From the NCBI GenBank assembly GCA_903851365.1, contig CAINOB010000063.1, forward strand, positions 21,675 through 85,674: a stretch of 64,000 bases of DNA, written 5' to 3'. Positions within the stretch are counted from its first letter, which is position 1; every line of letters starts with the position of its first letter. Below the pieces are notes generated by a model that saw only the letters and a list, made by a program, of their open reading frames with translations, did not search any database and was not told the origin of the DNA. Both the position numbers and the translations under genes were made by a program. This document shows, piece after piece, positions 36,560-61,360 of this stretch. This DNA comes from an uncultured Bacteroidota bacterium (GTDB lineage Bacteria; Bacteroidota; Bacteroidia; Bacteroidales; UBA12481).

Positions 36560-37888
36560 ATGAAGAATAAAGCAAACACTAAAGTATTTACCTGGTCAAT
36601 TATAGTAGCTCTCGGCGGTTTCCTTTTTGGCTTCGATACTGCGGTTATTTCCGGAGTGGAAAAGCAAATACAGGAACTCTTTCAATTGTCATCATTCTGG
36701 CATGGATTTACTATTTCTTCAGCCTTAATGGGTACAGTGCTCGGAGCGCTGATTTCCGGCCGACCTTCTGACCGTTATGGCCGCCGTCCGGTTTTGTTTA
36801 TCATAGCTGGTTTGTATGTATTAACCGCTGTGGGGAGCGCTACCGCCGGTAGCGTGTCCTGGTTTATAATTTTCCGGTTCCTTGGAGGGATTGGTGTTGG
36901 CGCCTCGTCAGTCGTTGCCCCGACGTATATAGCAGAGATCTCACCTGCAAAAATCAGGGGTCGCATGACTGCACTCTTTCAGTTTAATGTGATTTTCGGT
37001 ATCCTGATGGCATTTATTTCCAATTATCTGCTCCGCGATGTGGGTCATGACCCATGGAGATGGATGCTCGGTGTCGCCGGATTTCCTGCATTTATGTATT
37101 TCTGCCTCCTGTTTATTATTCCTGAGAGCCCGAGATTCCTTATCAAGATTGGACAAATAGATAAAGCCAGAGCGATCCTAAAAAAAATCGAAATATCTGC
37201 TATTGAGGAAGAAATTGCAGAAATCAAGCAGAGCCTGGTAAAGTCGACCGAGCGAGCCGTCAGCCTGTTTTCCCGTATGTATTTTAAACCGATTTCCGTC
37301 GCTTTTCTGGTTGCCATGTTTAATCAATTTTCCGGAATCAACGCAATCCTTTATTATGCACCACGGATATTCGAAATGAGCGGCCTATCAAATGCTGATT
37401 CTATGTTCCAGTCGATTCTCGTAGGAATAACAAATGGAATTTTTACGATCCTTGGAATGATACTTATTGATCGGGTAGGCCGGCGTAAGCTGTTGATCGT
37501 CGGATCGATAGGTATGTCGATATGCCTCGGACTTATCGCCAGAACATTCTATGTACAAAGCTTTTCGGGATACGGACTCCTGATATTCCTGCTGATATAC
37601 ATTATGTTTTTCGCCTTCTCCACTGGTGCGGTAATCTGGGTTTTAATCGCTGAAATATTTCCGAATCGTGTTCGTGGAAAAGGCCAGTCACTGGGAAGTT
37701 TTACCCATTGGTTCTTTGCTGCACTGATTACTTTTTTATTTCCAGTGGTAGAAAAAGCATTTCAATTCGGGGTCGCTTATTCATTTACATTTTTCTCCAT
37801 CATGATGGTCGTTCAGGTGATTGTGGTATGGCGATATTTCCCGGAAACAAAAGGTAGAACTCTCGAAGATATCGGAGAAAATATATGA
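36560..37888 (+). CDS. Sugar porter family MFS transporter
   Basis: GGFLFGFDTAVISG, DRYGRR, YIAEISP, PESPRFL, NQFSGINAILYYAP and PETKGRTLE. Confidence 0.96.
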   Translation: MKNKANTKVFTWSIIVALGGFLFGFDTAVISGVEKQIQELFQLSSFWHGFTISSALMGTVLGALISGRPSDRYGRRPVLFIIAGLYVLTAVGSATAGSVSWFIIFRFLGGIGVGASSVVAPTYIAEISPAKIRGRMTALFQFNVIFGILMAFISNYLLRDVGHDPWRWMLGVAGFPAFMYFCLLFIIPESPRFLIKIGQIDKARAILKKIEISAIEEEIAEIKQSLVKSTERAVSLFSRMYFKPISVAFLVAMFNQFSGINAILYYAPRIFEMSGLSNADSMFQSILVGITNGIFTILGMILIDRVGRRKLLIVGSIGMSICLGLIARTFYVQSFSGYGLLIFLLIYIMFFAFSTGAVIWVLIAEIFPNRVRGKGQSLGSFTHWFFAALITFLFPVVEKAFQFGVAYSFTFFSIMMVVQVIVVWRYFPETKGRTLEDIGENI

Positions 37889-43800: not shown

Positions 43801-43995
43801 ATGGTGCCACCCGATAATAGCGAGATGTTTTACAATGCAATGATTGCGCATAATTCAAAGACATATTACCTTAGATTGCCCTCTGGCGGTCATGGGTTAA
43901 ATGGTTATAGCGGCCCCATGTGGGAGGAATGGAAAACGACTAGTCTACAATGGTTGAAAGACATTAAGATAATACCAAAAACAGGTAAAAAATGA
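37885..43995 (+). CDS. 2036-aa multidomain CAZyme: GH29 + DUF2341 + LamG + SASA/CE6-like esterase + SGNH esterase + alpha/beta-hydrolase (BD-FAE-like)
   Basis: KHHDGF/WFDG/SKGGNYLLNVGP (GH29). FPLLIRL..NGEDIRF..YQIENW..IWVRIP (DUF2341). WFHVVHTY..GEIDEVRIS (LamG). IIDGQSN..FWHQGE..GCHY (SASA). IGDSI..NLGEN..DGQHP (SGNH). CPGGGY..GFSAGGHLA..GGHG (alpha/beta hydrolase). Confidence 0.88.
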   Translation: MKKRIIAVAILLAVVFAGTGKLYSQAIPDKKITKEERVKWFFDARFGMMITWGAYAQAGGYWKGVYEGGYSEWLKFRQIPNVEYDSLIREFNPVEFNAANWVAIAKGAGMKYMVMMAKHHDGFALYDSKVSTYDIVDMTRFKRDPVAELAAECQKQGLKFGVYYSVDRDWHHPDAACDGRYNQCNFWDYPQNKAPDAMERWHNSYFPNYAYKQVEELVTRYPIDIVWFDGIGLKTRKEIAKLDSLIHTLRPNCLINSRISNFVGSTDGDYGSKGDNETPGGYQAGGWENPGTLGFSYGYSVHDSLMSPKQAVHNLIDIVSKGGNYLLNVGPDGKGKIIPEATNILYKMGDWLRIYGASIYGADGMPYSPPENIRITGKQHQLFIHLFEPTNKTVVLNGIMKEAGKFLTGVKKAYMLADPRKQPLKFQLNEDGLSVDLSANPIPADKLNPLAEVIVVNDVDENIAAAKPYPDWKYSGSMFIITTGEGVGAYLPVSSKVNDFPLLIRLDKSSFDFTHALANGEDIRFATAGGQRLAYQIENWNAANGAANIWVRIPEIRGNERQEIKMFWGKNDAWNESDGSAVFNESNGYLTVVHMDSKLKDEAGSVKPVNVGATETDGMVGRAMRFEETHGISCGEKIMNFPSGSAPSSTEVWVRSDQPNGLILGWGNEEKTGKVTMNFASPPQIKMDCYWSGANVNSGWCPVKEWFHVVHTYQQGDSRIYINGRLYGASASVKNPLAIKSPVGFWIGGWKNDYWFTGEIDEVRISKVTRSPEWINLEYENQKPEQTLVGALVKPGNSFSVSSQKITIEEGKSVTITAQADGAIKTSWGNDIYTLSTDRLSYTFNAGRVTGDVYTSLTFTAVYPDEVKTIEIPIKITEQIPEPVFTLKAPEFWNGRDPIEIIPEITNLKEMIAKGAGQLNYTWKVYGGAVIKKESEKLVLLRSQCSGIITVVLILNNGGPEVQSWVKLTVKEPENDPWIIKSAGAIEKPVDNQFVARNDKNEGILHYNGKLTSTADSVFVRVYADGKQISQQAHKVLADKAYAFELKLKPGLVKYKIELGSKVGSKEKVLESVGNIVCGDAYIIDGQSNAEANDYGKAVNPYTSDFLRSFGCADTDPAKSRLNLWGNAVSYDNQGAKLQIGYWGIELGKMLIENNKIPVCIINGSVGGSRIDVHQRNEANPTDSTTIYGRLLWRIQKAGLTDGIRGAFWHQGENDQGAAGPSGRFGWEDYQQYFIDMSAAWKQDYPNIQHYYLFQIWPRSCAMTENGSDNTLREKQRTLPSLFSHMSVMSTLGIKPPGGCHYPPEGYAQIARLICPLVEHDNYGRFFDHTITAPDLISARYTSTKSDEISIEFNQPVVWKDTLASQFYLNGNSGMVGSGSVTGNILKIKLKEPLKASRISYLDSKLWSQDNLLWGENGIAALTFWDVPLMRFIPVSDSSIQSGLSAYNWVKEKAGISSSVCGASISVQFNFTNSVAVEISTSHMAFESPDRFPILAWTVNGGPVQTHQIKAGEKSIQLAYGPKNPVIELYIKGMSPMEDRYNGDLPPNSVKITGFIVEAYGKAYPTNSTGKHWLTIGDSILSGDGAALTTDQGRPADDLWVASDNARASYGYLLARHYGYLESRLAFGGYDWGGGMAANPSLNVLIDNITSTKSRLVDGKLYPVPEVCMINLGENGAPAAKDVIEALKKLRTRVNPSTKIIVMIPVSGRALKEVTLSFNQYKTNTGDRYVYLVDLGKIAFSTGDGQHPTAGGHESIYKAALTSFDSIFDVISLWNGKAPDGQGKFTAENPVITVHHPEKPNGAMVVICPGGGYGGLVKGPEGHGIAEWLNENGITGLVLEYRLPKGRQEVPLLDAQRAIRLARSKAANWGCDPKRIGIIGFSAGGHLASTAATHFDEGDKKAADPIARLSSRPDFAILIYPVITMGPKTHEGSKRNLLGPDPKEESVNRFSNEKQVTSLTPPVFLAHALDDDMVPPDNSEMFYNAMIAHNSKTYYLRLPSGGHGLNGYSGPMWEEWKTTSLQWLKDIKIIPKTGKK

Positions 43996-47559: not shown

Positions 47560-50500
47560 ATGAAGTCGGATATTAAAAAGGATAAGCCTTGTTCATGTAA
47601 CGGAGATTGCACTCCGAAAGTCGATCGTCGCGGTTTTCTGCGTATTGCAGGTGTTGGCTCACTGGGTCTCTATGCCGGGTTGCCGATGATTGCCGGCCCT
47701 TTTAGTTCATCGGATTTTCAGGATCTGGTGCCTGTTGATAAAAAACTTCGCCCCGAATGGGTTAAAAGCCTGTTTGAAAGAGGTACTCCGCAGATATACA
47801 AAGGTGAAGAGCTGAAATACATCGGGATGCCAATCGGCGGAATTTGTGCCGGGCAGGTGTATCTCGGAGGAGATGGCAAATTGTGGCATTGGGATATCTT
47901 TAATAAAAGAATTGGAACGGGTGACTCCCATTACGCTCATCCGATGGAGCCCTCTTCTCCGTTTGAACAGGGATTCGCAATAAAAACCGGATCAGGAGAT
48001 AAAGCTCAGGTCAGGCAGTTGGATAAAACCGGATTTCCAGACGTTACTTTCCGCGGTGAATACCCAATTGGCAAAGTAGAATATCCGGCCGATCCGGTCT
48101 CGGTTTCACTCGAAGCATTTTCTCCGTTCATCCCGCTCTCAGTGGATGAATCAAGTCTTCCTGCAACCATCATGCGTTTTACCCTTAAAAACAATTCGGC
48201 AGATACGGTTGAAACAACGCTGTATGGATGGCTTGAAAATGCTGTTTGCCTGAACAATCGCTACGCCGAAGGAAAACGCCGCAATAAATTAGTTAGCGCA
48301 AAAGGGTACAGCGTCCTTAACTGTACAGCTGAAAAGGTGCCGCCACAAACGGAAACCAAACGTCCCGATGTGACATTTGAGGATTGGAAAGATGAAAAGT
48401 ATGTTGGCTGGATTGCCGAAGGAAATGCCTTCGGTACCGGACCAATTAAAAAAACGGATATTCCAGATTATCAGGGCGATGTCGGCGGTGATACGGAGAG
48501 ATTGGTGAATTCGCATGCCTTGGCTTCCACTGCTGCTGATGTTGCCAGCCGGGATAGTGCAACAGGAACTTTGACCAGTAAAAAGTTTATCATAGAAAGA
48601 AAATTTATCAATCTATGGATCGGTGGCGGCTCCCATAAGGATAAAACTTGTTTCGATGTTATGATCGACGGTAAGGTAGTTCGCTCGGCAACCGGAATGA
48701 ACGATAATAAAATGACCCAACAAAGTATAAACGTTGCTGAATTTCAAGGTAAGGAAGCGTATATCCGGATTGTAGATGCTGAAACAGGTGCCTGGGGCAA
48801 TATCGGGGTCGGTCGCATAACTTTCAGCGATCGGCAGTTTAAGCAGGAGGATCTTGAGAAATTACCCGATTTTGGAACCATGAGCCTTGCCCTGCTGGGC
48901 GAAAAGGCCAATTATGGGTTTGCTGAAACTGATAACAAGGGAATTGGACAAAAACACGTTTCTGATGCTTCAGTGTTGCTTGAGGAGCATCTTACCGGCG
49001 CCGTCGGTCGTAAAATCAACCTCAAAGCTGGTGAATCAACCGTGCTGACCTTTGCCGTCACCTGGAATTTTCCAAATCTTTATGTTCCGGGCAAAGGCCG
49101 CTACTATGCTTCTAAATTTGCCAATGCCGAAGCAGTAGCCGATTATCTGTCGAAAAATATAAGCCGGCTGTATAATCAGACAAAAATGTGGAGGGATACC
49201 TGGTACGATTCAACACTGCCATATTGGTTCCTCGACAGGACTTTTACCAATGCTTCCACGTTGGCTACATCAACTGCCTTTCGGTTCTACGACGGTAAAT
49301 TCTGGGGCTGGGAAGGCGTAGGTTGCTGTGAGGGGACCTGCACTCATGTTTATCATTACGAACAAACCATGGGACGGATTTTTCCAGAACTGGATATCGT
49401 CCTTCGTGAAAAAACCGACTTTAATACCAACGACAGCTTTAAAGGTGATGGGGTGGTGGAGTACCGTGGTAAAGGAACCGGTGCCGCAATGGACGGTCAG
49501 GCTGGGATCATACTTCGAAGCTTGAGAGATCACCAAATGTCGCCCAATGATGAATTCCTGAAACGTAACTGGACAAAGATCAAAAGTGCCCTTGAGTGGA
49601 TGATAGCTCAGGATGGAACTGAGGATGGCGTGATCAAAAAGAACCAGCATAATACTCTTGATGCTGAATGGTTCGGTGACGTAGCCTGGCTGACAGGACT
49701 GTATCTGGCTGCTCTAAAAGCCGGAGAAGTGATGGCAAAAGAAATGGGTGACCCTGATTTTGCAGGAAAATGCAGCAGGATCCTGGATAAGGGACGGAAA
49801 AATTTCGTCGGTAAAATGTGGAATGGCGAATATTTTATTCAGGTTGGCGATCCGGCTAAAGCAAATATGGTTGGTTCTTATGATGGTTGTGAAATTGATC
49901 AGGTTCTCGGACAAAGCTGGGCATATCAGGTGGGTCTGGGTGAGGTGCTTCCTCAGGAACAAACCAGACAGGCACTGAAATCACTATGGAAATACAACTT
50001 TACTCCTGATGCAGGTGCCTATCGCGAGGTGTACAAACCCGGCCGGTGGTATGCCATGGCCGGAGAAGCCGGAACGCTCATGTGCAGTTGGCCCAAGGGC
50101 GAATCCAAGCGCGTTAAGACAAACTACGACTTTTACTTCAACGAATGCATGAACGGATTTGAACATCAGCTTTCAGGCCACATGATCTGGGAAAATATGC
50201 TCCTCGAAGGCTTCGCAATCGAAAGAGCCATCCACGACCGTTATCATGCCATCCGCAGAAATCCTTGGAATGAGGTGGAATGCGGCGATCACTATGCTCG
50301 TTCCATGGCAAGTTATGGCGTATTTCTGGCTGCCTGTGGTTTTGAATACCATGGTCCTAAAGGCCATATCGGATTCGCTCCCCGACTAACGCCCGAGAAC
50401 TTTAAATCGCCCTTTACTTCCGCCGAAGGGTGGGGTACCTTTGAGCAGCGTGCCCAGGGCTCCTGGCTCAGGGCCAGAGTAAAAGTTAATTTCGGAAAAC

Positions 50501-50679
50501 TCAGGGTGAAAACAGTTTCGTTGGCTCTGACAAAAAATCTGAATCCCGGAACCATAAAGGCTTCTTTAAATGGAAAGGCAATCGGCAGCAGTATGTTGGT
50601 AAATAAAGAAAATGTATTGATTACCCTTAATCAGGAGGTAGTGATCGGCGTCGGTGAAAGGCTTGACCTGTTTCTTTAA
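47560..50679 (+). CDS. GH116 family glycoside hydrolase with Tat signal and inserted CBM38-like module
   Basis: DRRGFL Tat signal, GMPIGGICAG, EAFSPFIP, WEGVGCCEGTCTHV, DGQAG, HNTLD, DQVLGQ and NPWNEVECGDHYARSMASY. Confidence 0.88.
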   Translation: MKSDIKKDKPCSCNGDCTPKVDRRGFLRIAGVGSLGLYAGLPMIAGPFSSSDFQDLVPVDKKLRPEWVKSLFERGTPQIYKGEELKYIGMPIGGICAGQVYLGGDGKLWHWDIFNKRIGTGDSHYAHPMEPSSPFEQGFAIKTGSGDKAQVRQLDKTGFPDVTFRGEYPIGKVEYPADPVSVSLEAFSPFIPLSVDESSLPATIMRFTLKNNSADTVETTLYGWLENAVCLNNRYAEGKRRNKLVSAKGYSVLNCTAEKVPPQTETKRPDVTFEDWKDEKYVGWIAEGNAFGTGPIKKTDIPDYQGDVGGDTERLVNSHALASTAADVASRDSATGTLTSKKFIIERKFINLWIGGGSHKDKTCFDVMIDGKVVRSATGMNDNKMTQQSINVAEFQGKEAYIRIVDAETGAWGNIGVGRITFSDRQFKQEDLEKLPDFGTMSLALLGEKANYGFAETDNKGIGQKHVSDASVLLEEHLTGAVGRKINLKAGESTVLTFAVTWNFPNLYVPGKGRYYASKFANAEAVADYLSKNISRLYNQTKMWRDTWYDSTLPYWFLDRTFTNASTLATSTAFRFYDGKFWGWEGVGCCEGTCTHVYHYEQTMGRIFPELDIVLREKTDFNTNDSFKGDGVVEYRGKGTGAAMDGQAGIILRSLRDHQMSPNDEFLKRNWTKIKSALEWMIAQDGTEDGVIKKNQHNTLDAEWFGDVAWLTGLYLAALKAGEVMAKEMGDPDFAGKCSRILDKGRKNFVGKMWNGEYFIQVGDPAKANMVGSYDGCEIDQVLGQSWAYQVGLGEVLPQEQTRQALKSLWKYNFTPDAGAYREVYKPGRWYAMAGEAGTLMCSWPKGESKRVKTNYDFYFNECMNGFEHQLSGHMIWENMLLEGFAIERAIHDRYHAIRRNPWNEVECGDHYARSMASYGVFLAACGFEYHGPKGHIGFAPRLTPENFKSPFTSAEGWGTFEQRAQGSWLRARVKVNFGKLRVKTVSLALTKNLNPGTIKASLNGKAIGSSMLVNKENVLITLNQEVVIGVGERLDLFL

Positions 50680-50685
50680 AGACTT

Positions 50686-51834
50686 TTAATGCTGAATGGA
50701 ATGATATTCAGCAAACCGGTCACTGGCATTGCTGGTGTATTTTTCCCATCCCGGCCAGTTGGGCCACCAGGTATTGACCATCAAATGCATGGAGTGGTTG
50801 GGAAAGTTTGATTGCAAGGTGGTTTTGTCTTTTTGTATACCATCAATGTACCAGCTGATTCCGTCAGGGTAAAAGTCTATTCTGTATTCATGAAATGCGA
50901 CACTTGGATCAAATCCAAGGTTGATGGTGTTGCTGTATACGGATTGACCGGTGATAGAACTGATATCAGATTTCCAGATAGTGAAAATCACCTTGCCGCT
51001 ACCGTCGTTCCAGATTTCCAGATCAATCTCGTCACCATAATCCACTCCCTCATATGTGAACAGAGTAGTAATTGTGCCAGGAAGTGCCGGGCATTTCATA
51101 TTCGTCCGATAGGTTCCGAAACTATAGGTATATGGACTGACAGATTCAATTTCACCACCATTTTTGGTGTTTGCGGGGTGCCTGAGTAATAGTTTGCCAG
51201 ATTCCATAGTCACATTTTCTGGTTGAAAGAATCCGAGTCCGGGTCGGGCTGTTGTTCCCGGTGTCCTGTGATTTCCCTTAACCCATCTCGCATCATTAAA
51301 AACGCTGAAATGGTCAATAAAGTTAAATGCCATGAACGAGCTGTCCTGCTCGCGGTAATCCAACCGGATAGCGGGTCCGTCTTCAGGTCTTGAACTCCAG
51401 ATGGCCATTCTGACCTTGTACGATCCTGAAGTGATTTTTGGATCTGGAGGCACTACCCACGATTTACTTTGCACGGACGATACCTGTCCCGGATACAGGG
51501 TCACCGGATTTGAGGTGATATCATACCACAGTCCCGTCCTGTCCTGCACACTGTATCCAACCCAAAAGGTCCATTTTAGTTTTCCTGAATTTTTAAATGA
51601 AATTTTTGAAGTCACCGTGTTGCCCGAATAATAATCTCCGGAGGGCGGTAGGAAATTGGTTATCGTAATCTTTACAGGGTATCCAATCAGGTTCTGTTCA
51701 TTATCGAAGGTCTCCTCATCTCCCTGAATACCGAAATTATCCTGACATGAGGTGTTCAATAATGCAACCATAATGGCAAGAATTATAATATTTAAATAGG
51801 TATCCCGGGCTTTCAATGTTGTATCCCTGTCCAT
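50686..51834 (-). CDS. GH16 glycoside hydrolase lipoprotein with N-terminal Ig-like domain
   Basis: Likely start ATG 51834, LNTSC lipobox, catalytic DEIDLE, GFDPSVAFHEYRIDF and ISWYIDG. Confidence 0.85.
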   Translation of the reverse strand: MDRDTTLKARDTYLNIIILAIMVALLNTSCQDNFGIQGDEETFDNEQNLIGYPVKITITNFLPPSGDYYSGNTVTSKISFKNSGKLKWTFWVGYSVQDRTGLWYDITSNPVTLYPGQVSSVQSKSWVVPPDPKITSGSYKVRMAIWSSRPEDGPAIRLDYREQDSSFMAFNFIDHFSVFNDARWVKGNHRTPGTTARPGLGFFQPENVTMESGKLLLRHPANTKNGGEIESVSPYTYSFGTYRTNMKCPALPGTITTLFTYEGVDYGDEIDLEIWNDGSGKVIFTIWKSDISSITGQSVYSNTINLGFDPSVAFHEYRIDFYPDGISWYIDGIQKDKTTLQSNFPNHSMHLMVNTWWPNWPGWEKYTSNASDRFAEYHSIQH

Positions 51835-53837
51835 TTCTTGAGAGAATCCGGGATCAGCCGGTTGCTTTTGCACGCGTAATTATTCTTTCTGATAAAATTG
51901 TCGAGCTCATCCCTTAACTGATTCAGCGTATCAGGCTGATCAATAGGTTCAATGTCAAGATCAGGAAATACTTTGTACAGGTTTTGATTGGATAAAAAAT
52001 TTCCCGCGCTAACCATATCGAGCAATTCATTAACATTTCGCATAAACGGATAGGTATACAGGCTCCGGAAGTTGACGGAATTATCGAGACCGTGGCCGAT
52101 CCACGAAGCAACTTTTGGACGGGTTATGAAATTATTACCACTCAGGAGGGCGATGAGGGAAGGGGTTAAATCAAAATGAGTTGTTAGGGCCGAGAATTTT
52201 TCAGCTTTTTTTAATAATGGCGAGTAGATGATTAACGGAACATGAAACCGGTCGATTTGGGTGCTGATCGGAATTTCGGGCATCCGGTGATCCCCGGTAA
52301 TGATAAAGATGGTATTGGCAAAGGAAGGTGTTTTGCTTATCTCATCGAAAAAATATCGGAACGACTCGTCAAAGTACATTACTGTGGAAAGCTCTTTTTG
52401 ATATTGATTGTCGAAAGTCTTGGTTTTTTCATCCAGTTTCAGAAGCATCAATCTTTCTGCCACCTTTTGAATATAATGCTCCTGATCAGGTATGTTAAAT
52501 GGATCGTGCATTGCCAGGGTGAGCATGATATCAAGCCGGGGAGAATCAGTTTTTGATTTAAGCGTTTCAAGATACTTGACGAAAAGGTCGCGATCGGTGT
52601 ATCCCCAGGTAAATCCGTTGCCCGTTGCCGGAAGTTTGGTATAACCCGGCCCGAAACTGCTACCGTCAATGATCTGATCGATCCCCTGACGGTTCAGAAA
52701 AACACCCATATTGTCAAATTCTGATTCCCCTCCATAGAAGAATTTGCAGGTGTACCCGGCCTGTTTCTTCAGCAGGCTGATCAAACTGAGATGATCCGGC
52801 ATTTTTTCGCCCAATCCTGCGAACCCATGATCTCCGAATGGAAGGGAACCCAGAGTTGACGGCAAAACCTGAAATGTTCGCCCTGAAGTGCTCAGGCAGT
52901 TTTCCCAATAAAGACTCTTCTGCATCAGCGAATCCAAGTAGGGAGTAAAGCTTCCCAAATAAGCTCCCTTACCGCTGTATGCCCGCCCCAGGCTCTCAAC
53001 GATAATCAGAACAATATTCGGAGGCGAATCTCCCAGATTAAAATATTCTGCCAAAACATCCGGAGTGGTCTCCTCATGAAGGAATGGATAATCAGGATCG
53101 ATATATTTGAACGGATTACCTGCCGTACTCGCTGAAATCGGTTTCAAGGTGTAAGCCTTGTTGTTTAATGTACCCTGACGCATATAATGATCTGCGACAC
53201 TCTCGATGAAAAAGTCGAGCTTGTTGGTTGCAACAAACATGCTGAATTCATTGCTGAATTTTGCGGGATTTATATTCAGCTGCTTTATAGGTACCAGCGA
53301 AATCAACATCATGACAGTCAGAATTGCCATCAACCAGGGTTTCATTCGGAAATAAACATGCTTAACAAAAACCCTGACCATAATCGCCAGATATATGATG
53401 GTAAGAATATATGGAGCAATATTGATTTTTCCTGAAGAGCCAACAGTATGCTGAATCTCTTTAAATGAGTACCCGAACAGGTCGGCTCCCAAAGGTACCC
53501 TCGCCGTTGAAAAGTATTTTATCAGAAGGATATTCCCCAACATCAGCAGAATACACACTGAAACGAAGAAATACTTGGCGGCTTTCTGACTAAAAAAAGC
53601 GATTACCAGGAATGGAACCATGAGCAGACCCGAAATCCTCAGGTATAATATCAGATCCATCTTAAGGGCAGTCAGCAAATTGATAGCAATATCTGCTTGG
53701 AAAAGGGAGGACGTGGTTGTAAAAAGCAGCTCCGATAGGCGGACCATCAGTATCATCGCCGCAAGGATAATACTCAGGCTGAGAAATCGCCTAAGGGAGC
53801 GTGCAACGAGCTGAACCGATTCCGTTAATGAAGGCAT
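51813..53837 (-). CDS. LTA synthase / phosphoglycerol-phosphoethanolamine transferase family (alkaline phosphatase superfamily)
   Basis: About five N-terminal TM helices, PNIVLIIVESLG, SGRT (catalytic Thr), FFYGG..FDNM, HDPF and IITGDH. Confidence 0.9.
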   Translation of the reverse strand: MPSLTESVQLVARSLRRFLSLSIILAAMILMVRLSELLFTTTSSLFQADIAINLLTALKMDLILYLRISGLLMVPFLVIAFFSQKAAKYFFVSVCILLMLGNILLIKYFSTARVPLGADLFGYSFKEIQHTVGSSGKINIAPYILTIIYLAIMVRVFVKHVYFRMKPWLMAILTVMMLISLVPIKQLNINPAKFSNEFSMFVATNKLDFFIESVADHYMRQGTLNNKAYTLKPISASTAGNPFKYIDPDYPFLHEETTPDVLAEYFNLGDSPPNIVLIIVESLGRAYSGKGAYLGSFTPYLDSLMQKSLYWENCLSTSGRTFQVLPSTLGSLPFGDHGFAGLGEKMPDHLSLISLLKKQAGYTCKFFYGGESEFDNMGVFLNRQGIDQIIDGSSFGPGYTKLPATGNGFTWGYTDRDLFVKYLETLKSKTDSPRLDIMLTLAMHDPFNIPDQEHYIQKVAERLMLLKLDEKTKTFDNQYQKELSTVMYFDESFRYFFDEISKTPSFANTIFIITGDHRMPEIPISTQIDRFHVPLIIYSPLLKKAEKFSALTTHFDLTPSLIALLSGNNFITRPKVASWIGHGLDNSVNFRSLYTYPFMRNVNELLDMVSAGNFLSNQNLYKVFPDLDIEPIDQPDTLNQLRDELDNFIRKNNYACKSNRLIPDSLKKWTGIQH

Positions 53838-53845
53838 GATAAAAG

Positions 53846-55081
53846 TTAAAATAGTCTTGAAATACTGATGTCAAAAGTGTAATATCCTGAAAATGTTCCT
53901 TTTTGCCGCTCTTCATTGCCCCAGACAACGCCCCCGTTGATGATCCAGAAGTGGTTGATTATGTGGTTATATTCCACACGCAGGGAGCGTGTTTTTAAGG
54001 CCAGTTTCTGATTTGAATCAATCAGGTTCCGGTTGTCATCCGGGGATACTCCATAGCCCAGACGAAGTCCGATATAGTTTTCCGGATCAGAAAAATACCG
54101 TCTCAGCAGCATTAATCCGGAAACCGATGTGCCATCGGAAGCGGGTGTGACAAACGCTCGTGCGGAAATCCAGTAATTGCCTAAGTATTTGCCTAAAGTG
54201 GCTGTATATATGTTTACCGAGGAGCTGTTGAATTGTAAAATCCGCATACCGAGCGAACCTTCAAATGATTTAGGGAAATTGTGGTACCATTCCAATCCCA
54301 GCCTGTTCTTTGGGAAAATGGTGCTTTGAGAGTATCCATAGTTCAGATAACCATAATTATTCTCGCCAAGTTTAGGATAGGCATCGATCTCTCCCTGAAA
54401 TCCTCTGGAAGCATAACGGTCAGCCACATTTGCCCGGGCGATTATGGATCCGAATTTTGTTTTTCTGCCATACGATAAGGCTGCAATCTGCCAGGGATCA
54501 CGGCTGAATGCTTTATCAAAAACATCTAACGTGTAAGTTATCCTCAGAGTATTCTTGAGCACATCAAGCCGATATTCCTGGAGCTTTTTCAGCGCTTCGG
54601 CATGAGCAGGATTCAATTGAATCAATTTTTTAAGGATGGCTACCGCTTCCTCATTCCTGCCGCTACTGTGAAGTATCCTGGCTTTTTTTAACAGGAAAGG
54701 TTCAGCCGCCGAGTCCTTCGATAAAGCGAGATCGCAAAAACTAATAGCCTTCGAATAATTTTCTGACCAATATTCCACGTCAGCAAAAGCATCCAGAGCA
54801 TCCATGTTTCCTGGACTGCGTTTTAGCACATCGTTCAGTACCATGCGGGTGGAATCACTGATGCCATCCCAGGAATAGGTTCGTGCCATCAAAATTGCAA
54901 CATCCGAGTCGAATCCTTTTGCAAGAATACTTTTGCACATCTGCCGTGCTTTTGCCCGCTGACCATTGAAAGCAAGATGGCGGGCTTCAACAAAAGTCTG
55001 GGCCGGCAAAGTTGCATGCAGTCCAGCCAAAAGAAGGATTATTGCTAAGGCACGGGATCGTATGGATAATTTCAGCTGCAT
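53846..55081 (-). CDS. TPR + YaiO-family outer-membrane beta-barrel protein
   Basis: Signal peptide, TPR N-half (ARTYSWDG, DVEYW), barrel with EIDAYPK..YGYLNYGYS..FPK and GKYLGNYW, C-terminal Phe. Confidence 0.88.
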   Translation of the reverse strand: MQLKLSIRSRALAIILLLAGLHATLPAQTFVEARHLAFNGQRAKARQMCKSILAKGFDSDVAILMARTYSWDGISDSTRMVLNDVLKRSPGNMDALDAFADVEYWSENYSKAISFCDLALSKDSAAEPFLLKKARILHSSGRNEEAVAILKKLIQLNPAHAEALKKLQEYRLDVLKNTLRITYTLDVFDKAFSRDPWQIAALSYGRKTKFGSIIARANVADRYASRGFQGEIDAYPKLGENNYGYLNYGYSQSTIFPKNRLGLEWYHNFPKSFEGSLGMRILQFNSSSVNIYTATLGKYLGNYWISARAFVTPASDGTSVSGLMLLRRYFSDPENYIGLRLGYGVSPDDNRNLIDSNQKLALKTRSLRVEYNHIINHFWIINGGVVWGNEERQKGTFSGYYTFDISISRLF

Positions 55082-55098
55082 TTTTTATCAATTATTCG

Positions 55099-56508
55099 TC
55101 ATTTTGGTGTTTCAAACCCAACACGGGTCATGTTTCCCCAAGACTTACGTTTACGTATGAAAAAGTCGAAATTCCCCCTCATGGCCCAATAAACAATTAA
55201 TGGATGGTAAAGGATGGGTTCGATCCAGGCCGTGAGGATCAGCTTTAAGATCATTCTCTTTTTTTTGTACCGGTGGTAGGTCAGATGGTCGAAAAGAATA
55301 GAATAGGTAGAAAAGGAAATCGAGAAAAAATAAACAAAGAAAACCATTACATAAAAAAATGGCCAGTTTGGATCACCCAGTATAGCAATAGAGGTAAAAT
55401 ACAGTATGCCAAATATTTCAATGAATGGAGCCAACCACTCAAAAAGCACCCAAAATGGGTGGGATACCATTCCCATAAATCCATACTTTGGATTGAGGAA
55501 AACATTTCGGTGAAGGAATAGCGTATCAATTGTGCCTCTGGTCCATCGGTTGCGTTGACTTCCTAAAACTTTCATGCTCGATGGGGCCTCCGTCCAGCAT
55601 AGCGGATCAGGAATATAAACAACCTGGTATTTCAACTTTTGTTCAGCCATGAATTTGCGCATGCGAACGACCAGCTCCATATCCTCGCCAACTGTTTTGG
55701 TATAATATCCGCCGCAATTGATAACAACTTCCTTGTCGAATATCCCGAGGGCACCGGAAATTAAAAGAAGCCCATCGAGGCGGCTCCAGGCCAAACGACC
55801 CATTAAGAAACTTCTGTTGTATTCCACTACCTGGCAGCGGGGAAGAAATTTATCCGGAACGTTTATTTCAATGAGTTGGCCATCAACAACCTTGCAAGAA
55901 TTGGCAATTCGGATCACCCCCCCTGTTGCTATAACTTTTCGGTCGGTTTCCTCCAGAAATGGCTTGATGAGTTTTTGAAGGGCATAGGGATCGATAATAG
56001 AATCAACATCAATCGAAATGAAATAGTCTCCCTTTGCGATATTAATTCCGGCGTTCAGGGCATCTGCCTTGCCGCCGTTGATCTTGTCTATGACGGTAAG
56101 ATTGTTGAAAGCTTTATTTTGAGATTTGTAAATCCCGGCAATTTCTTTGCAGGTGATCTTGTAATCAATCATATAGGGAACTTTCTCCAGGTCAAAAGCC
56201 ACGATGGCCCTCTCCAGCGTGTTGTCCTTGCTGCCGTCATTCACAATGATAATCTCGAAGCTGGGATAATAAAGTGCCAGCAAGGCTTTTATATTCTCAA
56301 CAATACTCAGCGATTCATTATAAGCAGGAGCAATTACGGTTATCATGGGTGCCAGCGGAGAGGAGATAATCGCATCGTAATCTGTGATTTTTGAAGTAAA
56401 AAAGCGCCTTCTCAACTCCAGGGCCGATATGAATGCAAGAACAAAATAGATGCTGAATATGCAAATCGCATAAAACAGAAAAAACTTTTCAAAAATTCCC
56501 TGAACCAT
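55099..56508 (-). CDS. Processive GT2 polysaccharide synthase (PgaC/IcaA/YaiP-like)
   Basis: PAYNE, VNDGSKD, NGGKADALN, IDVD (DxD), GEDME and QRNRW (QxxRW). TM helices at both ends. Confidence 0.93.
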   Translation of the reverse strand: MVQGIFEKFFLFYAICIFSIYFVLAFISALELRRRFFTSKITDYDAIISSPLAPMITVIAPAYNESLSIVENIKALLALYYPSFEIIIVNDGSKDNTLERAIVAFDLEKVPYMIDYKITCKEIAGIYKSQNKAFNNLTVIDKINGGKADALNAGINIAKGDYFISIDVDSIIDPYALQKLIKPFLEETDRKVIATGGVIRIANSCKVVDGQLIEINVPDKFLPRCQVVEYNRSFLMGRLAWSRLDGLLLISGALGIFDKEVVINCGGYYTKTVGEDMELVVRMRKFMAEQKLKYQVVYIPDPLCWTEAPSSMKVLGSQRNRWTRGTIDTLFLHRNVFLNPKYGFMGMVSHPFWVLFEWLAPFIEIFGILYFTSIAILGDPNWPFFYVMVFFVYFFSISFSTYSILFDHLTYHRYKKKRMILKLILTAWIEPILYHPLIVYWAMRGNFDFFIRKRKSWGNMTRVGFETPK

Positions 56509-56513
56509 AATGC

Positions 56514-57842
56514 CTAATTTCTAAGGTCTGTAACGTGAGCTATATACTGCTCAATTTTCAGTTCTGAATTTGCGTTTAAAATAGCCAGCCGCTCCGGGCC
56601 TTCGTCGTTCATGTAATAGAGCGATCTGCAAGCCTCGGTTTTTAAAGTAACTGAGCCTGTCAATAAAATATTTTCCAGAAAATCGCAATCTTCCGGTGCA
56701 CCAATATTTCTGAATGCCCTGATAATTTCAATCCGGTTCCTATTGGTTTCTTTCGAATATTTGTCTTTTATCTGTTGTTTGCCATCGTATAGCCGAAGAT
56801 CGTTAATTGCACGGTACGTAAGCCACCGCGTAGTTTCCGACTGACTGCCGATCAATTGAAAAATGGCAGTTGCATTCTCCAACTGCTGAAAGAAAATGAT
56901 CATCCGCAAACAAAAGTTTCGGACATTGGGGTTCTCTGAATCCAGATAATCACTGAAAGAGGGAATATTCAACTGCCAGATACGGAACAGGTAAAAGGCA
57001 GTGACTTGCGTCCATCTGGTAAATGGACTGGTTAACTTCCGCAAAAAACCAAAAGGTTCCTCCGGATGGAGCCTGATAATCGAAGTTTGAGCCTCGGCTC
57101 TGACCAGATGGTGAGGATTATTGAGGAAACGTTCAATAGTATCGCCAGCGCCCTTTGGGTAGAGTTTTGTCAATTCCCTTAATCCCTCAACCCTGCGGTA
57201 AAAGAACATTGATCTCGTGGATCTCAGTGAATCCTTATAAAGTTTAAGATCTTCAAATACTTTCAATACCTGGTTGTCCATCCCGCCCCTGAGATTTTCC
57301 TGAAAATTCAGCAATACCGAAGTCAGGATTTTACGGTTCAGTGGTCTTTTAATTTTTTTTAGCTTGATAAGTGCCGTCTCCCAGCGGATCTCTCCAAAAA
57401 AATAGAGCCGGAGTACTTCCTCATAAATATTTTGGTACACCCTGATGTATCTCTCTTTGTGATTTTTCTGCTGATTGGTGAAATATAAAACCAGAATTAC
57501 CAGAAAAATATTGATAACAAAAACGACAATTAAAAAAGCAAAGAGGAGAATTATGGGATAGGAACCCGCCTTCTGAACAAACCTTGCAAAGTACCCTGAA
57601 ACAAAGGGTGGAAGATGGCCGTTGCCATATTTTATCAGGTCTAATTGAATTTCAGCAACTTTTTTATCGCCAAAAACTCTGCGGAATAAGTCATGCGAAA
57701 CACGCTCTGCACGTTTAACAGAATCAATTTTTTGAATTCGAACAACGGTAGCGGGATTTTCACTGGCCTGCAATCTGCCAGACGGGATAAGCCATGCACA
57801 GGTACAAATCAGGAACAGTATGATGATTTTATACTTGAACAT
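56514..57842 (-). CDS. Membrane-anchored HEAT-repeat domain protein
   Basis: N-terminal signal plus TM helix, then alpha-helical repeats (FLNNPHHLVRAEAQ, YLDSENPNVRNFC, LKTEACRSL). Confidence 0.8.
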   Translation of the reverse strand: MFKYKIIILFLICTCAWLIPSGRLQASENPATVVRIQKIDSVKRAERVSHDLFRRVFGDKKVAEIQLDLIKYGNGHLPPFVSGYFARFVQKAGSYPIILLFAFLIVVFVINIFLVILVLYFTNQQKNHKERYIRVYQNIYEEVLRLYFFGEIRWETALIKLKKIKRPLNRKILTSVLLNFQENLRGGMDNQVLKVFEDLKLYKDSLRSTRSMFFYRRVEGLRELTKLYPKGAGDTIERFLNNPHHLVRAEAQTSIIRLHPEEPFGFLRKLTSPFTRWTQVTAFYLFRIWQLNIPSFSDYLDSENPNVRNFCLRMIIFFQQLENATAIFQLIGSQSETTRWLTYRAINDLRLYDGKQQIKDKYSKETNRNRIEIIRAFRNIGAPEDCDFLENILLTGSVTLKTEACRSLYYMNDEGPERLAILNANSELKIEQYIAHVTDLRN

Positions 57843-57859
57843 GAGAGAATTTTAAGGAA

Positions 57860-58228
57860 TTATCTTTTCAAGGCTAATAACTTTCTGACTCGGATATTAA
57901 GCTCGCCCAAACTGAAGGGTTTAACCATAAAGTCGTCGGCACCAAGCTCGAAAGCTTTTAATACACTGTCTTCTGATCCTGAAGCTGACAAAACCATGAT
58001 CGGCGTATTAACTTTACGCTGGTCACGTAGGATCGAAATTACTTCATGACCATTGATAAAGGGCATAAACAGGTCGGTTATGATTAAATCGACCAGGTTA
58101 TCCTCCAGGATTTTTAAACATTCCTTTCCGTCCATGGCCCTCAGGATTTCATAACCCTCCCGGGTAAGGCTGTGTGCAATCGTTTCTAATATCAGCTTAT
58201 TGTCTTCCGCTATTATTATTCTTTTCAT
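57860..58228 (-). CDS. Single-domain response regulator (CheY-like receiver)
   Basis: IIIAEDN, LIITDLFMP (phospho-acceptor Asp), LSA and GADDFMVKPF. Confidence 0.95.
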   Translation of the reverse strand: MKRIIIAEDNKLILETIAHSLTREGYEILRAMDGKECLKILEDNLVDLIITDLFMPFINGHEVISILRDQRKVNTPIMVLSASGSEDSVLKAFELGADDFMVKPFSLGELNIRVRKLLALKR

Positions 58229-58306
58229 GTGAGCTTTTAATCAGGCGGTTTTCATCCTTATAAAGGTAAAATAATAAATTTGATAAATATTAAACCTCCC
58301 CTTGAT

Positions 58307-61300
58307 ATGAAAGTGAACACTAAGTTGCATAAGCTTTTGATCCTTATCTTGTTCATCGGTTTAAGCATGGCTTCCTATGCCCAGAAAGCTGGCGAACAGT
58401 GGAGCCCTGAAAAAGCTTGGAAATGGTACAATGAAAATCCTTGGATCTGCGGGTTCAACTATATCCCTTCGAATGCGATCAATTATACCGCTATGTGGGA
58501 TAAAACAAGTTTTTCACCTGATCTGATTGATAAAGAGCTCGGCCTGGCTGAGAAAACCGGCTTTAATACCGTTCGGGTGGTTTTGCAGTTTATTGTTTGG
58601 GAGAATGATCCGGCCTGGTTCAGGGAAACATTTGCAAAATTCCTGACGATTTGCACCAAACATAAAGTCCGGGTAATGCCTGCTCTGTTTGATGACTGTG
58701 TTTTTGGAGAAAATATTGATCCGGCACTGGGTAACCAGCCAGAGCCCCGCGAAGGATGGTACGCCTGGGCATGGTCGCCTAGCCCCGGTACCACCATGGT
58801 TAAAGATACTTCATCCTATTTCAGGCTCGGAAAGTATGTGAAGGATATAATCGGTTCCTTTAAAAATGATCCTGCTGTTTTAGCTTGGGACCTGTATAAC
58901 GAGCCATCAACCAGTGCATTGACTGACAAAAGCTATCTCCTGATACATAAGGTGTTTCAATGGGCCAGGGAAATTAATCCATCCCAACCACTGACATTAG
59001 CTTATTGGGATGGTAATCAGGAGCTTGACAAAATAATTTTTAATAACTCCGATATTATAACTTTCCATTGTTATTCGGAAAAGACAGAAACGCAAAAGTT
59101 GATCAATACATTAAAGCAGCAGAATCGTCCCCTTATCTGTTCCGAATGGCTCAATCGCCCTCTGGGGTCAACAGTCGAAAGTGTTTTGCCTCTCTTCTTT
59201 AAGGAAAATGTTGGATGTCTGCACTGGGGATTAGTTAATGGTAAAACCCAAACAAACCTTCCGTGGGGCCATCGGCCTGCCGATCTGCCTTATTTACGAA
59301 TTTGGCAGCACGATCTGTATACGACAGATCTTAAAGAATATAGTCCTTATGAGCTTGTTCTTTTTAAGTCGTTTATTTCAGAATCCAAGACAGGCAATAA
59401 ATTGATTGCTGATGAAACTTTAGGCAAAGTTCAGGGCGAGCTGATAAAGAACTTTGGAGAAAAAAGTAAAGAGCGGATTACCAAGGGTACTTTTCAACTA
59501 GCTAAAAACTGGCGAAAATCGGATGGCTCCGAGGAGGATTTTGTAAAGTTCTGTAATGAAAATTTTCTGGCAGACAGTGATCTTAAATCAAACTTTCAGG
59601 TCATTCAGCAGAACCTGACTTTACAGAACGGCTATCTTTCCAAAATTGGATTCAGGTTCTCCGAATCCAAAAATTTCACAGATAAAAAGGAAATCAGGGC
59701 CGATCAGTATTTCAGAAACAATATTCCCGGATCCGATCCTTATCAGGGAAAGCTCGCCCAGTTTATTCAGCTTAATTTCCCCTTTTATACCTTCGATGAA
59801 AAACGACTAAACGGAAAGAACTGGACCCGTCAGGAATGGGCTATGGTCCGCCTCGGTGAATTTTATCCCGACCGGGGCAATCCGGATTTCACCCCCGAAG
59901 CTGGCGATGAGGTAAAAGCATTTCAGGAATATATGGGCAAGTACTTTTTCCGTATGGATCATATCTGTATGCCTGATCAAACCTACCCATTCACTAAAGC
60001 TTTAATACTACACAGTCATTTCGGGCTAAGGGATAATCTGAAGGAAGAATATACCAGACCTGGAGGACTGGCGCGACAGGAATTAACGGGTAAATTAGTG
60101 GAGCATATCACCCTGGGTACGGTTCCGGCTGAATTTATCAAGGATACTGCCACACGTTGGAATCCCTGGACCAATCAATTGTTTAAAGTTGAGTCAGGTA
60201 ATTTAGTGCAGGTTGCATTTACCCCCGAAGGCACCAAAAGATACGCGGGCTTGTTATCTTCATTTAAGAATAAAAGTTCAGAGGATAAACTATTTCCTGA
60301 CGAATCCACCTTTATCGATAGAACTTTTAGAAACTCGAATTTCCAGGTGGAAGAGGTCGAAAGCCTGATTCGCACTTTTCTTTCTGACCCTGTTATCGTT
60401 TCAGTTGGCAAACTGATTTCCAAGCGATTGGGCCGACCACTGAAGCCATTCGATATCTGGTATAGTGGATTCCAGTGTCAATCAGCATTCCCGGCAAACA
60501 AGCTCGACTCCATAACTAAAAAGAGGTACCCCAATCCAGCCGCCCTGCAAAAGGACCTTCCATCAATTCTTTTGAGAATGGGATTTCCCGAATCAGAAGC
60601 AAATTATGTGGGAACACATGCCAAAGTAAGGCCGATATTATCAGGAGGATATTCCGACCAGCCTTCCATGAGAGGTGATACTGCCTTAATGACAACGGTT
60701 TTCAATCCTGACGGACTGGATTATAAAGCTTTTCGGATTGCAATGCATGAATTGGGACATGTTGTTTGCGGGGTATATTGTACAAAAGACATCGATAACA
60801 GCATTCTTGCAAATGTGCCAACCAGTGGAATAACCGAGGGCTTTGCCGAAATGCTGGCTTATAAAAACATTGAAGGCCTGGGTTTAACACAGGGCGGAAA
60901 CATTAGCCAGAAGGACCTCCTTGCACTTGCCTCCTTATGGTACCTGGTGGACCTTGGAGGTCAGTCGCTCACAGATATCGAAACCTGGAAATGGATGTAT
61001 GCCCATCCACTAGCTACTGCGGCAGAGCTGCAATCCGCCGTGTTAAAAATCAGCGGAGATATATGGAATCAGTACTATTCACCTGTTTTCGGAGGGATAA
61101 AAGACCAGCATATTCTGTCGATCTATAATCATTTCATCACGGGGAGCCTGTATCTGTATAACTACTTTCTTGGAAACGTAATCATGTTTCAGCTCTATGA
61201 TAAGTTTATGCCTTACAATTTGGCCAATGGATTGAAAACAGCCTGCAAGGAGGGGAATACCTTACCTGATCTTTGGATGCAACATGCCGTTGGTCAGGGA

Positions 61301-61360
61301 GTATCGCTGGAGCCTTTATTGAGGACCGCGAAAGAAGCTGTTCAACGGTCTGGTATGTAA
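58307..61360 (+). CDS. Fusion of a GH5-like (GH5_13-like) glycoside hydrolase and a gluzincin metallopeptidase-like domain
   Basis: Likely start ATG 58307 with signal peptide. GFNYIPSNAIN, LFDDC, WDLYNEP, ICSEWL and WGLVNGKTQT in the N-domain. HELGH plus TEGFAE in the C-domain. Confidence 0.8.
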   Translation: MKVNTKLHKLLILILFIGLSMASYAQKAGEQWSPEKAWKWYNENPWICGFNYIPSNAINYTAMWDKTSFSPDLIDKELGLAEKTGFNTVRVVLQFIVWENDPAWFRETFAKFLTICTKHKVRVMPALFDDCVFGENIDPALGNQPEPREGWYAWAWSPSPGTTMVKDTSSYFRLGKYVKDIIGSFKNDPAVLAWDLYNEPSTSALTDKSYLLIHKVFQWAREINPSQPLTLAYWDGNQELDKIIFNNSDIITFHCYSEKTETQKLINTLKQQNRPLICSEWLNRPLGSTVESVLPLFFKENVGCLHWGLVNGKTQTNLPWGHRPADLPYLRIWQHDLYTTDLKEYSPYELVLFKSFISESKTGNKLIADETLGKVQGELIKNFGEKSKERITKGTFQLAKNWRKSDGSEEDFVKFCNENFLADSDLKSNFQVIQQNLTLQNGYLSKIGFRFSESKNFTDKKEIRADQYFRNNIPGSDPYQGKLAQFIQLNFPFYTFDEKRLNGKNWTRQEWAMVRLGEFYPDRGNPDFTPEAGDEVKAFQEYMGKYFFRMDHICMPDQTYPFTKALILHSHFGLRDNLKEEYTRPGGLARQELTGKLVEHITLGTVPAEFIKDTATRWNPWTNQLFKVESGNLVQVAFTPEGTKRYAGLLSSFKNKSSEDKLFPDESTFIDRTFRNSNFQVEEVESLIRTFLSDPVIVSVGKLISKRLGRPLKPFDIWYSGFQCQSAFPANKLDSITKKRYPNPAALQKDLPSILLRMGFPESEANYVGTHAKVRPILSGGYSDQPSMRGDTALMTTVFNPDGLDYKAFRIAMHELGHVVCGVYCTKDIDNSILANVPTSGITEGFAEMLAYKNIEGLGLTQGGNISQKDLLALASLWYLVDLGGQSLTDIETWKWMYAHPLATAAELQSAVLKISGDIWNQYYSPVFGGIKDQHILSIYNHFITGSLYLYNYFLGNVIMFQLYDKFMPYNLANGLKTACKEGNTLPDLWMQHAVGQGVSLEPLLRTAKEAVQRSGM

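Follow-up and report, generated by a model that had tools for sequence, protein, structure and literature searches.

How does a bacterium open and close a processive polysaccharide synthase when it carries no detectable diguanylate cyclase? The question is raised by six genes at positions 50686..58228 of a 64,000-nt stretch (hereafter, the window) of contig CAINOB010000063.1, assembly GCA_903851365.1, from an uncultured Bacteroidota bacterium. In transcription order, the genes encode a single-domain receiver, a membrane-anchored HEAT-repeat protein, a glycosyltransferase of family 2 (GT2), a tetratricopeptide-repeat (TPR) protein ending in a YaiO-family outer-membrane barrel, a transferase resembling lipoteichoic acid (LTA) synthase and OpgB, and a glycoside hydrolase of family 16 (GH16). 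Characterised synthase-dependent exopolysaccharide systems are typically switched by cyclic di-GMP (c-di-GMP). As the original prediction had it, no PilZ, GGDEF or deacetylase family matches any of the six proteins, and no module for sensing c-di-GMP is recognised among them by family searches, which would not reveal a composite site of PgaCD type. A GGDEF search of the genome at large (G000, 99.4% complete) returned 0 matches and was positive in 8 of 14 control genomes. We judge it probable, though well short of certain, that the six genes form a synthase-dependent exopolysaccharide machine in which docking of the phosphorylated receiver on the HEAT protein switches the GT2 in place of c-di-GMP. 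The observed basis of this model is gene content, motifs, and co-occurrence.

We expect such a machine to work as follows. An unlinked relay of hybrid kinase and Hpt protein would phosphorylate the receiver at D52, and the phosphorylated receiver is predicted to dock, through its alpha1 and beta5-alpha5 face, on residues 141-149 and 176-189 of the HEAT protein. The latter would partner the small GT2 as PgaD or the BcsB anchor does, and the GT2 would polymerise and translocate a beta-linked chain. The LtaS/OpgB-like enzyme, held at the synthase, would add phosphoglycerol or, less likely, phosphoethanolamine (pEtN), after which the TPR-barrel protein would export the chain and the GH16 lipoprotein would trim or release it. 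The likely output is cell-cell cohesion or a biofilm matrix. If this is true, receiver docking on a HEAT protein is a different way to gate a processive synthase.

The receiver, the HEAT protein, and the synthase as a conserved core

Among 401 sampled genomes of the phylum, 89 hold a match to the GT2 at E<=1e-60, the window's own genome included. Of the 94 non-self matches, 81 lie within the 80 stretches that we took. The counts below use 79 of these stretches, the GT2 threshold having removed L124 (L-numbers label the relative loci compared with the window block); in 72 of the 79, the flank is 5 kb or longer on either side. These are working counts, since the profiles derive partly from the counted loci and miss divergent barrels, and kin loci are not independent. 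The HEAT gene adjoins the GT2 gene directly in 75 of the 79 loci; within 6 kb lie a solo receiver in 57, a YaiO barrel in 60, the transferase in 24 (23 of which also have YaiO), and a GH16 in none. The 18 closest loci, of Prolixibacteraceae type, give 17, 16, 9, 8, and 0 for HEAT, receiver, YaiO, transferase, and GH16, respectively. The block is layered, with a conserved core of receiver, HEAT protein, and GT2, to which TPR-YaiO and the transferase are common additions and GH16 one that is rare in Bacteroidota. The recurrence of the gene order in other genomes places the clustering beyond chance, and the neighbourhood conservation proposed earlier as a check is there. The locus had been described as a complete exopolysaccharide system with a counterpart for each known role: a predicted exporter, head-group transferase, and hydrolase are indeed found, but they do not make up one fixed six-gene system, and the full order occurs only in the window, L137, and L149.

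Nor is the system one of Bacteroidota alone, as had been proposed. The nearest GT2s (72-82% identical) belong to Prolixibacteraceae and Bacteroidales genomes, and homologues of the HEAT protein number 1063 representatives at E<=0.001. Plasmid records carry receiver-HEAT-GT2-YaiO-LTA synthase in Emticicia (the HEAT protein annotated as hypothetical), HEAT-GT2-TPR/YaiO-DUF4838 in Bacteroides finegoldii, receiver-YaiO-HEAT-GT2 in Mesorhizobium, receiver-TPR-HEAT-GT2 in Erythrobacter, receiver-HEAT-GT2 in the haloarchaea Salinirubellus and Haloarcula, and HEAT-GT2 in Deinococcus, Planococcus, and Paenibacillus; the same search with GH16 gave catalytic-domain matches only. HEAT and GT2 form a single open reading frame (ORF) in L207.

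The receiver keeps every residue of phosphorylation (E8, D9, D52, S81, and K103), and in 58 system-adjacent receivers D52 is retained in 93% and K103 in 100%. A profile of 38 such receivers from other loci ranks the window receiver first of 80 matches in its genome (136 vs 120 bits). The HEAT protein has a hydrophobic stretch at 6-24, likely a signal, a transmembrane (TM) helix at 97-115, and a helical cytoplasmic part; we predict that it serves as both co-polymerase and receiver dock. Co-folding of the receiver with HEAT residues 92-442 scored 0.62, against 0.00 for the best of three controls; the mark applied to such scores was attained in 116 of 157 cases for solved complexes and in 2 of 215 for mismatched pairs, rates that are rough here, the alignments being our own. 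The runs share at least 97% of contacts, with a partner pLDDT (predicted local distance difference test) of at least 85. Also in favour, the structures in the PDB related to the HEAT profile at E below 0.01 cover only the C-terminal repeats, not the predicted dock. The modelled interface joins the two named surfaces just inside the membrane anchor, at the active-site face of the receiver, where HEAT N183 touches K103. The model supports receiver-HEAT binding as a prediction, not a demonstration.

Several points weigh against this switch. No other receiver was among the co-folding controls, all of which were unrelated proteins, and the alpha1/beta5-alpha5 surface is the general docking face of receivers. 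Conservation of the HEAT interface equals that of the rest of the protein (0.41 vs 0.41), save for G186 (93%) and N183 (73%). Four of four more distant system-adjacent receivers find a best match in G000 other than the window receiver, the window locus holds no kinase gene, and GGDEF or HD-GYP genes neighbour the system in some loci. As to the input, G000 encodes two stand-alone Hpt proteins and several hybrid kinases, and none of the kinases examined there can be assigned as cognate to the window receiver; Hpt genes precede the receiver in L143 and L146. One candidate input is a PAS hybrid kinase (G000:C2:174900-177304) that is followed by its own receiver; over 520 aa, an Hpt-like tail among them, it shares 40% identity with an RgzA-like protein.

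Two variants of the core were observed in passing. L117, L119, L120, and L121 have receiver-less HEAT-GT2 pairs with epimerase, HD-GYP, and GGDEF neighbours, a divergent YaiO, and a HEAT protein altered at the G186 motif; they have possibly switched to c-di-GMP control. In some HEAT proteins the outer N-terminus bears a SPOR domain, as does the C-terminus in one GT2 (L001:6322-7977; L101:8972-10846), hinting at septal or peptidoglycan-linked localisation; the window HEAT protein has none.

The GT2 is a membrane protein with the D,D,D,QxxRW motifs and fold of a processive synthase, as expected for synthase-dependent secretion. It carries D91, D167-x-D169, GED276, QRNRW at 318-322, and a WGxMxR loop at 457-462, and ends at residue 469 without a PilZ tail; QxxRW, ED, and the C-terminal loop are kept across 78 GT2 sequences. 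Its AlphaFold2 model (pLDDT 92) finds hyaluronan synthases as best Foldseek matches (Z 28.7, second by Z; root-mean-square deviation (rmsd) 3.2, ~390 residues aligned). A phmmer search of the GT2 against the PDB returned weak N-terminal matches only.

Predicted export, decoration, and chemistry of the polymer

The TPR-YaiO protein is predicted to be the exporter. Its model (pLDDT 91) combines TPR helices with 14 strands at 177-410, the TPR scaffold plus outer-membrane barrel of synthase-dependent systems, and its best Foldseek matches are BcsC and PelBC. An apparent GT2-YaiO fusion in L136, where the transferase gene is missing between barrel and GH16, arises from an ORF that reads through a run of N and was not counted.

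The transferase has five predicted TM helices, and its catalytic domain, on the outer side, carries E281, T321, H444, D516, and H517, as in LtaS/OpgB-like enzymes; position 321 is Thr or Ser in 25 of 25 homologues. Its relatives in the PDB are VP1736, LtaS, and LtaP, and it scores below the LtaS and OpgB equivalog cut-offs of NCBIfam. OpgB is its closer E. coli relative (E 1.6e-11), whereas BcsG gives a BLAST E of 3.3 and no profile match. The decoration had been predicted as phosphoglycerol or pEtN; because the enzyme resembles LtaS/OpgB and not BcsG, phosphoglycerol is the better supported of the two. As regards phosphatidylglycerol as the putative donor, the genome has three CDP-alcohol phosphotransferase matches, none of them assigned. 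In 6 of the 79 loci the GT2 continues into the transferase as one fused protein that retains QxxRW, the catalytic Thr motif, and GDH, and the three such fusions included in the GT2 tree lie in two separate clades, which suggests that there may have been at least two fusion events. Judged by these fusions and by gene context, the transferase belongs to the system.

The GH16 protein is predicted to be a lipoprotein, Cys30 having been picked out by inspection. Its N-terminal domain is beta-rich and conserved; this is joined to a lichenase-like catalytic domain, in which EIDLE occupies 269-273 and E269 and E273 are invariant in 34 sequences. The EIDxE motif lacks the extra residue, as in lichenases, and the nearest solved relatives are 1,3-1,4-beta-glucanases (E 7e-35). 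The BglS model gives 90 against a cut-off of 300, which makes the protein lichenase-like and not an equivalog. It would supply the envelope hydrolase of a synthase-dependent system, as an accessory only. In the 29 genomes of the window's family, the GT2 occurs in 12 and a GH16 match in 5; all three strong non-self matches adjoin system genes (L136, L137, and L138), and the fifth is a weak match in another context. A metagenome scan kept the best 80 of 410 GH16 relatives, to which the following counts refer. The family GT2 is present in 12 of 31 loci with the two-domain GH16; 19 of the 31 have a length of 8 kb or more, and 10 of these carry it (L170 and L171 being near-duplicates). Another GT2 occurs in three more two-domain loci, of which two are of Methanosarcinaceae type, and the remaining 49 loci include the family GT2 in 2. 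The GH16s adjoining the family GT2 are spread over three or more clades, among GH16s lacking it. Given this recurrent linkage in family and metagenome loci, we dropped the idea of a chance passenger; by its neighbourhoods, GH16 is a rare but real accessory whose linkage is not obligatory.

Separately, L151:7279-10523 and L153:5506-8654 belong to a Methanosarcinaceae-type locus in which this two-domain GH16 accompanies a related GT2 and an exosortase/archaeosortase-like gene. One ORF joining HEAT and GH16 (P0176) has a low-complexity junction on a single contig and is probably a frameshift join, a lead only.

What, then, does the GT2 make? Its lineage hints at an N-acetylhexosamine (HexNAc) polymer and the hydrolase at a glucan. 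We slightly favour a beta-glucan with 1,3 links, at somewhat less than even confidence, counting for it the lichenase-like GH16, its linkage to the GT2 in the two-domain loci, and the failure of wheat germ agglutinin (WGA) to bind the cores of Flavobacterium zorbs (PMC8481357). In that study the cores bound concanavalin A (ConA) and not WGA, PHA-L, or SBA. The negative result with WGA counts against a core rich in N-acetylglucosamine (GlcNAc). The polymer chemistry is not given in the available text of PMC11383685.

That the same machine and switch make a HexNAc polymer strikes us as unlikely, though it fares best among the alternatives. Such a polymer could resemble poly-N-acetylglucosamine (PNAG), chitin, or hyaluronan, or be a copolymer of Glc and GlcNAc; the GH16 would then have shifted in specificity or act on another substrate. 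PgaC_IcaA (TIGR03937) is the best NCBIfam model of the GT2, at E 8.5e-37 and 127 bits against a cut-off of 422, versus E 1e-12 for CelA (47 bits, cut-off 699). The proposed comparison with BcsA, PgaC, a BgsA-like protein (recognised by its HlyD-type neighbour), NfrB, and YaiP was made, with CrdS and other non-cellulose glucan synthases lying outside the tree; the family forms its own branch, with modest stem support (0.71), on the PgaC/IcaA/HasA/NodC side and apart from BcsA and the BgsA-like protein. This GlcNAc-using side, together with a sister group that includes long multi-domain GT2s of Bacillus and Sphingomonas, argues for a HexNAc polymer, as do the hyaluronan synthase fold and the WG-type C-terminal loop. 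The GH16 profile also matches the fungal chitin transglycosylase Crf1 (E 6.8e-9), and in several loci the barrel gene is followed by a DUF4838 gene, which we take to encode a GH163 endo-beta-N-acetylglucosaminidase. Set against this are an identity of only 27-28% to PgaC and IcaA (over 272-317 residues), lichenase scores far above that of Crf1, the lack of a deacetylase family among the six proteins, and the WGA-negative zorb cores, if these are made by this system. The glucan reading has its own difficulties beyond the GT2 lineage: no GH16 occurs in the 79 or the 18 Bacteroidota loci, 9 of the 19 long GH16 loci lack the family GT2, and binding of ConA, a sign of alpha-Man/Glc, by zorb cores (PMC8481357) is unexplained by a beta-polymer.

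A candidate output for zorbing, and the likeness to known systems

In Flavobacterium johnsoniae, the single-domain receiver RgzB is required for zorbs and biofilm, and its target is not known (10.64898/2026.07.01.735801). All four Flavobacterium loci tested (L056, L057, L059, and L061, assigned to the genus from protein cluster names, the F. johnsoniae locus itself lying outside the comparison) show an RgzA-like kinase, then a 121-aa RgzB-like receiver, and then (YaiO)-HEAT-GT2. The kinases match 9-10 of the 11 residues named for RgzA in the preprint, at a constant offset. For six of six RgzB-like receivers, the window receiver is the best match in its genome, at the same operon position; identities are 34-39%, F. 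johnsoniae RgzB itself being outside the comparison. The window locus differs in that its upstream gene is a divergent GH5-like ORF and not an adjacent GAF-HK-REC-Hpt kinase. The words 'glycosyltransferase', 'operon', and 'YaiO' are absent from the main text of the preprint, and the downstream genes are unmentioned there. The receiver-HEAT-GT2 family gives RgzB the concrete candidate target that the preprint left open, and the window locus adds two clues to chemistry, namely, the GT2-transferase fusions and the recurrent lichenase-like GH16. Tentatively, and with more doubt than belief, we propose that receiver-HEAT-GT2 is a widespread unnamed class of synthases in bacteria and archaea, switched directly by protein phosphorylation, the phospho-receiver opening the synthase by binding the HEAT co-polymerase, with a beta-glucan product that is phosphoglycerol-decorated where the transferase is present, and that in Flavobacterium this class supplies the missing output of RgzAB by building the cohesive zorb matrix.

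The receiver may instead not activate the synthase: the HEAT protein could be a phosphate sink or phosphatase, or the receiver could target the gliding motor, with the polysaccharide genes merely co-transcribed. In favour are the modelled contact of N183 with K103 at the active-site face and the effect of RgzA*, which shifts motor rotational bias and ~700 transcripts (10.64898/2026.07.01.735801); 22 of the 79 loci also lack a nearby solo receiver by the thresholds used. We nevertheless hold this to be improbable, since the HEAT interface has no conserved His and the receiver-HEAT-GT2 order is kept in Alphaproteobacteria and haloarchaea. Neither group is known to have a type IX secretion system (T9SS) gliding motor.

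The least probable alternative, which we give little credence, is that the product of the GT2 is a glycolipid, a short glycan, or a glucan like the osmoregulated periplasmic glucans, decorated by the OpgB-like enzyme, while the barrel carries other cargo, for instance the GH16 lipoprotein. By Z, the GT2 model is structurally closest to PcManGT, a mannosyltransferase from an archaeon (Z 31.4, rmsd 2.8, 337 residues aligned). The GT2 has few membrane helices, OpgB is the transferase's closer E. coli relative, many loci (9 of the 18 Prolixibacteraceae-type ones among them) have no barrel nearby, and Slam lipoprotein exporters likewise combine TPR with 14 barrel strands. But the conserved QxxRW, ED, and C-terminal loop, the full-length match to hyaluronan synthases, and a barrel that is present in 60 of the 79 loci though GH16 is in none, with BcsC and PelBC as its best matches, all speak against it.

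Returning to a receiver-switched exopolysaccharide machine, we find that the block appears to resemble the Bcs, Pga, and Nfr systems in its working while falling outside each by the following comparisons:

(i) PgaABCD/IcaADBC share a small GT2 that lacks PilZ and needs a membrane partner, a TPR-plus-barrel exporter, and the nearest NCBIfam model. The window GT2, far below that model's cut-off and in a separate clade, falls outside the PNAG synthases; the block has a HEAT protein instead of PgaD, a 14-strand YaiO barrel, and a receiver rather than c-di-GMP. Neither a PgaB/IcaB deacetylase nor a PgaD/IcaD family is found on the six proteins, the HEAT profile reaching 2.9 bits with PgaD.

(ii) E. 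coli Bcs (BcsABZC with BcsG) likewise unites a synthase, a TPR-barrel protein, a hydrolase, and a modifier of alkaline-phosphatase fold (PMC8892547), and the GT2-transferase fusions parallel the solved BcsA-BcsG complexes. The window GT2 is 22% identical to BcsA, without PilZ or any similarity to BcsB in the block; its modifier is not detectably BcsG-like, and its hydrolase is a GH16 and not of BcsZ type, which sets it apart from Bcs.

(iii) E. coli NfrBA-YbcH and yaiOXPS pair a GT2 with an outer-membrane barrel (PMC8669469), and E. coli YaiO matches the window barrel, of the same family, at 4e-10. NfrB, which carries MshEN, gives no BLAST match, and the window has neither the NfrB-like GT2 with MshEN nor the YbcH that mark Nfr; YaiP is 28% identical and on another branch, and these operons are without a HEAT or receiver gene.

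(iv) With the mixed-linkage glucan synthases BgsBA and RiGT2 the block may share a product class, to judge by the lichenase-like GH16. In the tree, BcsA is the group into which the BgsA-like protein falls; the window block is without an HlyD-type BgsB, and RiGT2 has a PilZ domain (PMC10374906).

(v) RgzAB of F. johnsoniae shares a CheY-type receiver without output domain; its kinase has no counterpart in the window locus.

The novelty lies in the receiver and the HEAT protein, to which the original prediction gave no role. A description of the system was not found in open-access full text, subscription papers and supplements being outside the scope; PMC12419801 proved to have no bearing on it.

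Layout of the block and its surroundings

The six ORFs are intact and, as predicted, co-oriented (Table 1); re-measured in transcription order from the receiver, the gaps are 17, 5, 17, and 8 bp, followed by a 22-bp overlap. Pfam and NCBIfam agree with the label of each gene: the YaiO domain scores above its NCBIfam cut-off, and PgaC_IcaA, LtaS/OpgB, and BglS are the nearest models for their proteins but stay below theirs. For GH16, the ORF finder begins at an alternative GTG start at 51873.

Table 1. Genes of the block, in transcription order, with window positions
Gene product	Positions	Strand	Length	Family evidence
Single-domain (CheY-type) receiver, first gene	57860..58228	-	122 aa	PF00072 E 1.5e-26
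Membrane-anchored HEAT-repeat protein	56514..57842	-	442 aa	HEAT_2 E 2.4e-6
Processive-type GT2	55099..56508	-	469 aa	Pfam GT2 match
TPR + YaiO-family outer-membrane barrel	53846..55081	-	411 aa	PF19413 E 2.9e-65, TIGR04390
LTA-synthase/OpgB-like phospholipid head-group transferase	51813..53837	-	674 aa	Sulfatase E 1.2e-30
GH16 predicted lipoprotein	50686..51834	-	382 aa from ATG	PF00722 E 1.1e-20

Contigs of three public DNA runs from two studies cover 30 of 30 bins of window positions 50000-59000, with no substitutions, indels, or joints listed; no one contig piece spans the whole stretch, and one of the three runs is possibly the source of the assembly. Half or more of the sampled words occur in five runs, all of them lake or freshwater metagenomes from two studies and one possibly the source; no RNA runs containing the block are listed. 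A sigma-70 promoter scan stayed at chance level (20 vs 16.9 +/- 3.9), and terminator-like sites numbered 14 vs 8.3 +/- 3.2, to none of which we give meaning. The Bacteroidota -7 box, TAnnTTTG, is absent from the 192 bases upstream of the block.

Several gene families adjoin the system elsewhere. One of ~390 aa without a Pfam match occurs at L127:6629-7822, in 10 other phylum loci, and in L169-L174 and L143, and was not found in G000; another of ~730 aa lies beside HEAT-GT2 outside Bacteroidota (L169:460-2739, L161:7593-9893, L207:7657-9804, L234, L272, and L273), and in Paenibacillus the two are fused. Atlas searches with both returned unnamed clusters only, with weak leads from the ~730-aa family to GH-A-type glycosidases. 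CotH-family kinase genes adjoin the system in two distant lineages (L143:2057-5158 and L273:2401-3819).

Both edges of the block are marked by genes on the opposite strand: a convergent GH116 gene 6 bp beyond the GH16 stop and, upstream, the divergent GH5-like gene. The latter (58280-61360, +) is a 1026-aa ORF whose N-terminal GH5/GH2-like barrel is followed by ~650 residues without a Pfam match, with a HELGH motif at 823; it is possibly a glycosidase-peptidase fusion, and L136 and L137 have in its place an ORF of similar size and similar N-terminus. Farther away, at 37885-43995 (+), a 2036-aa enzyme joins alpha-L-fucosidase, DUF2341, laminin G, SASA esterase, and BD-FAE esterase domains and adjoins GH106 and GH116 genes.

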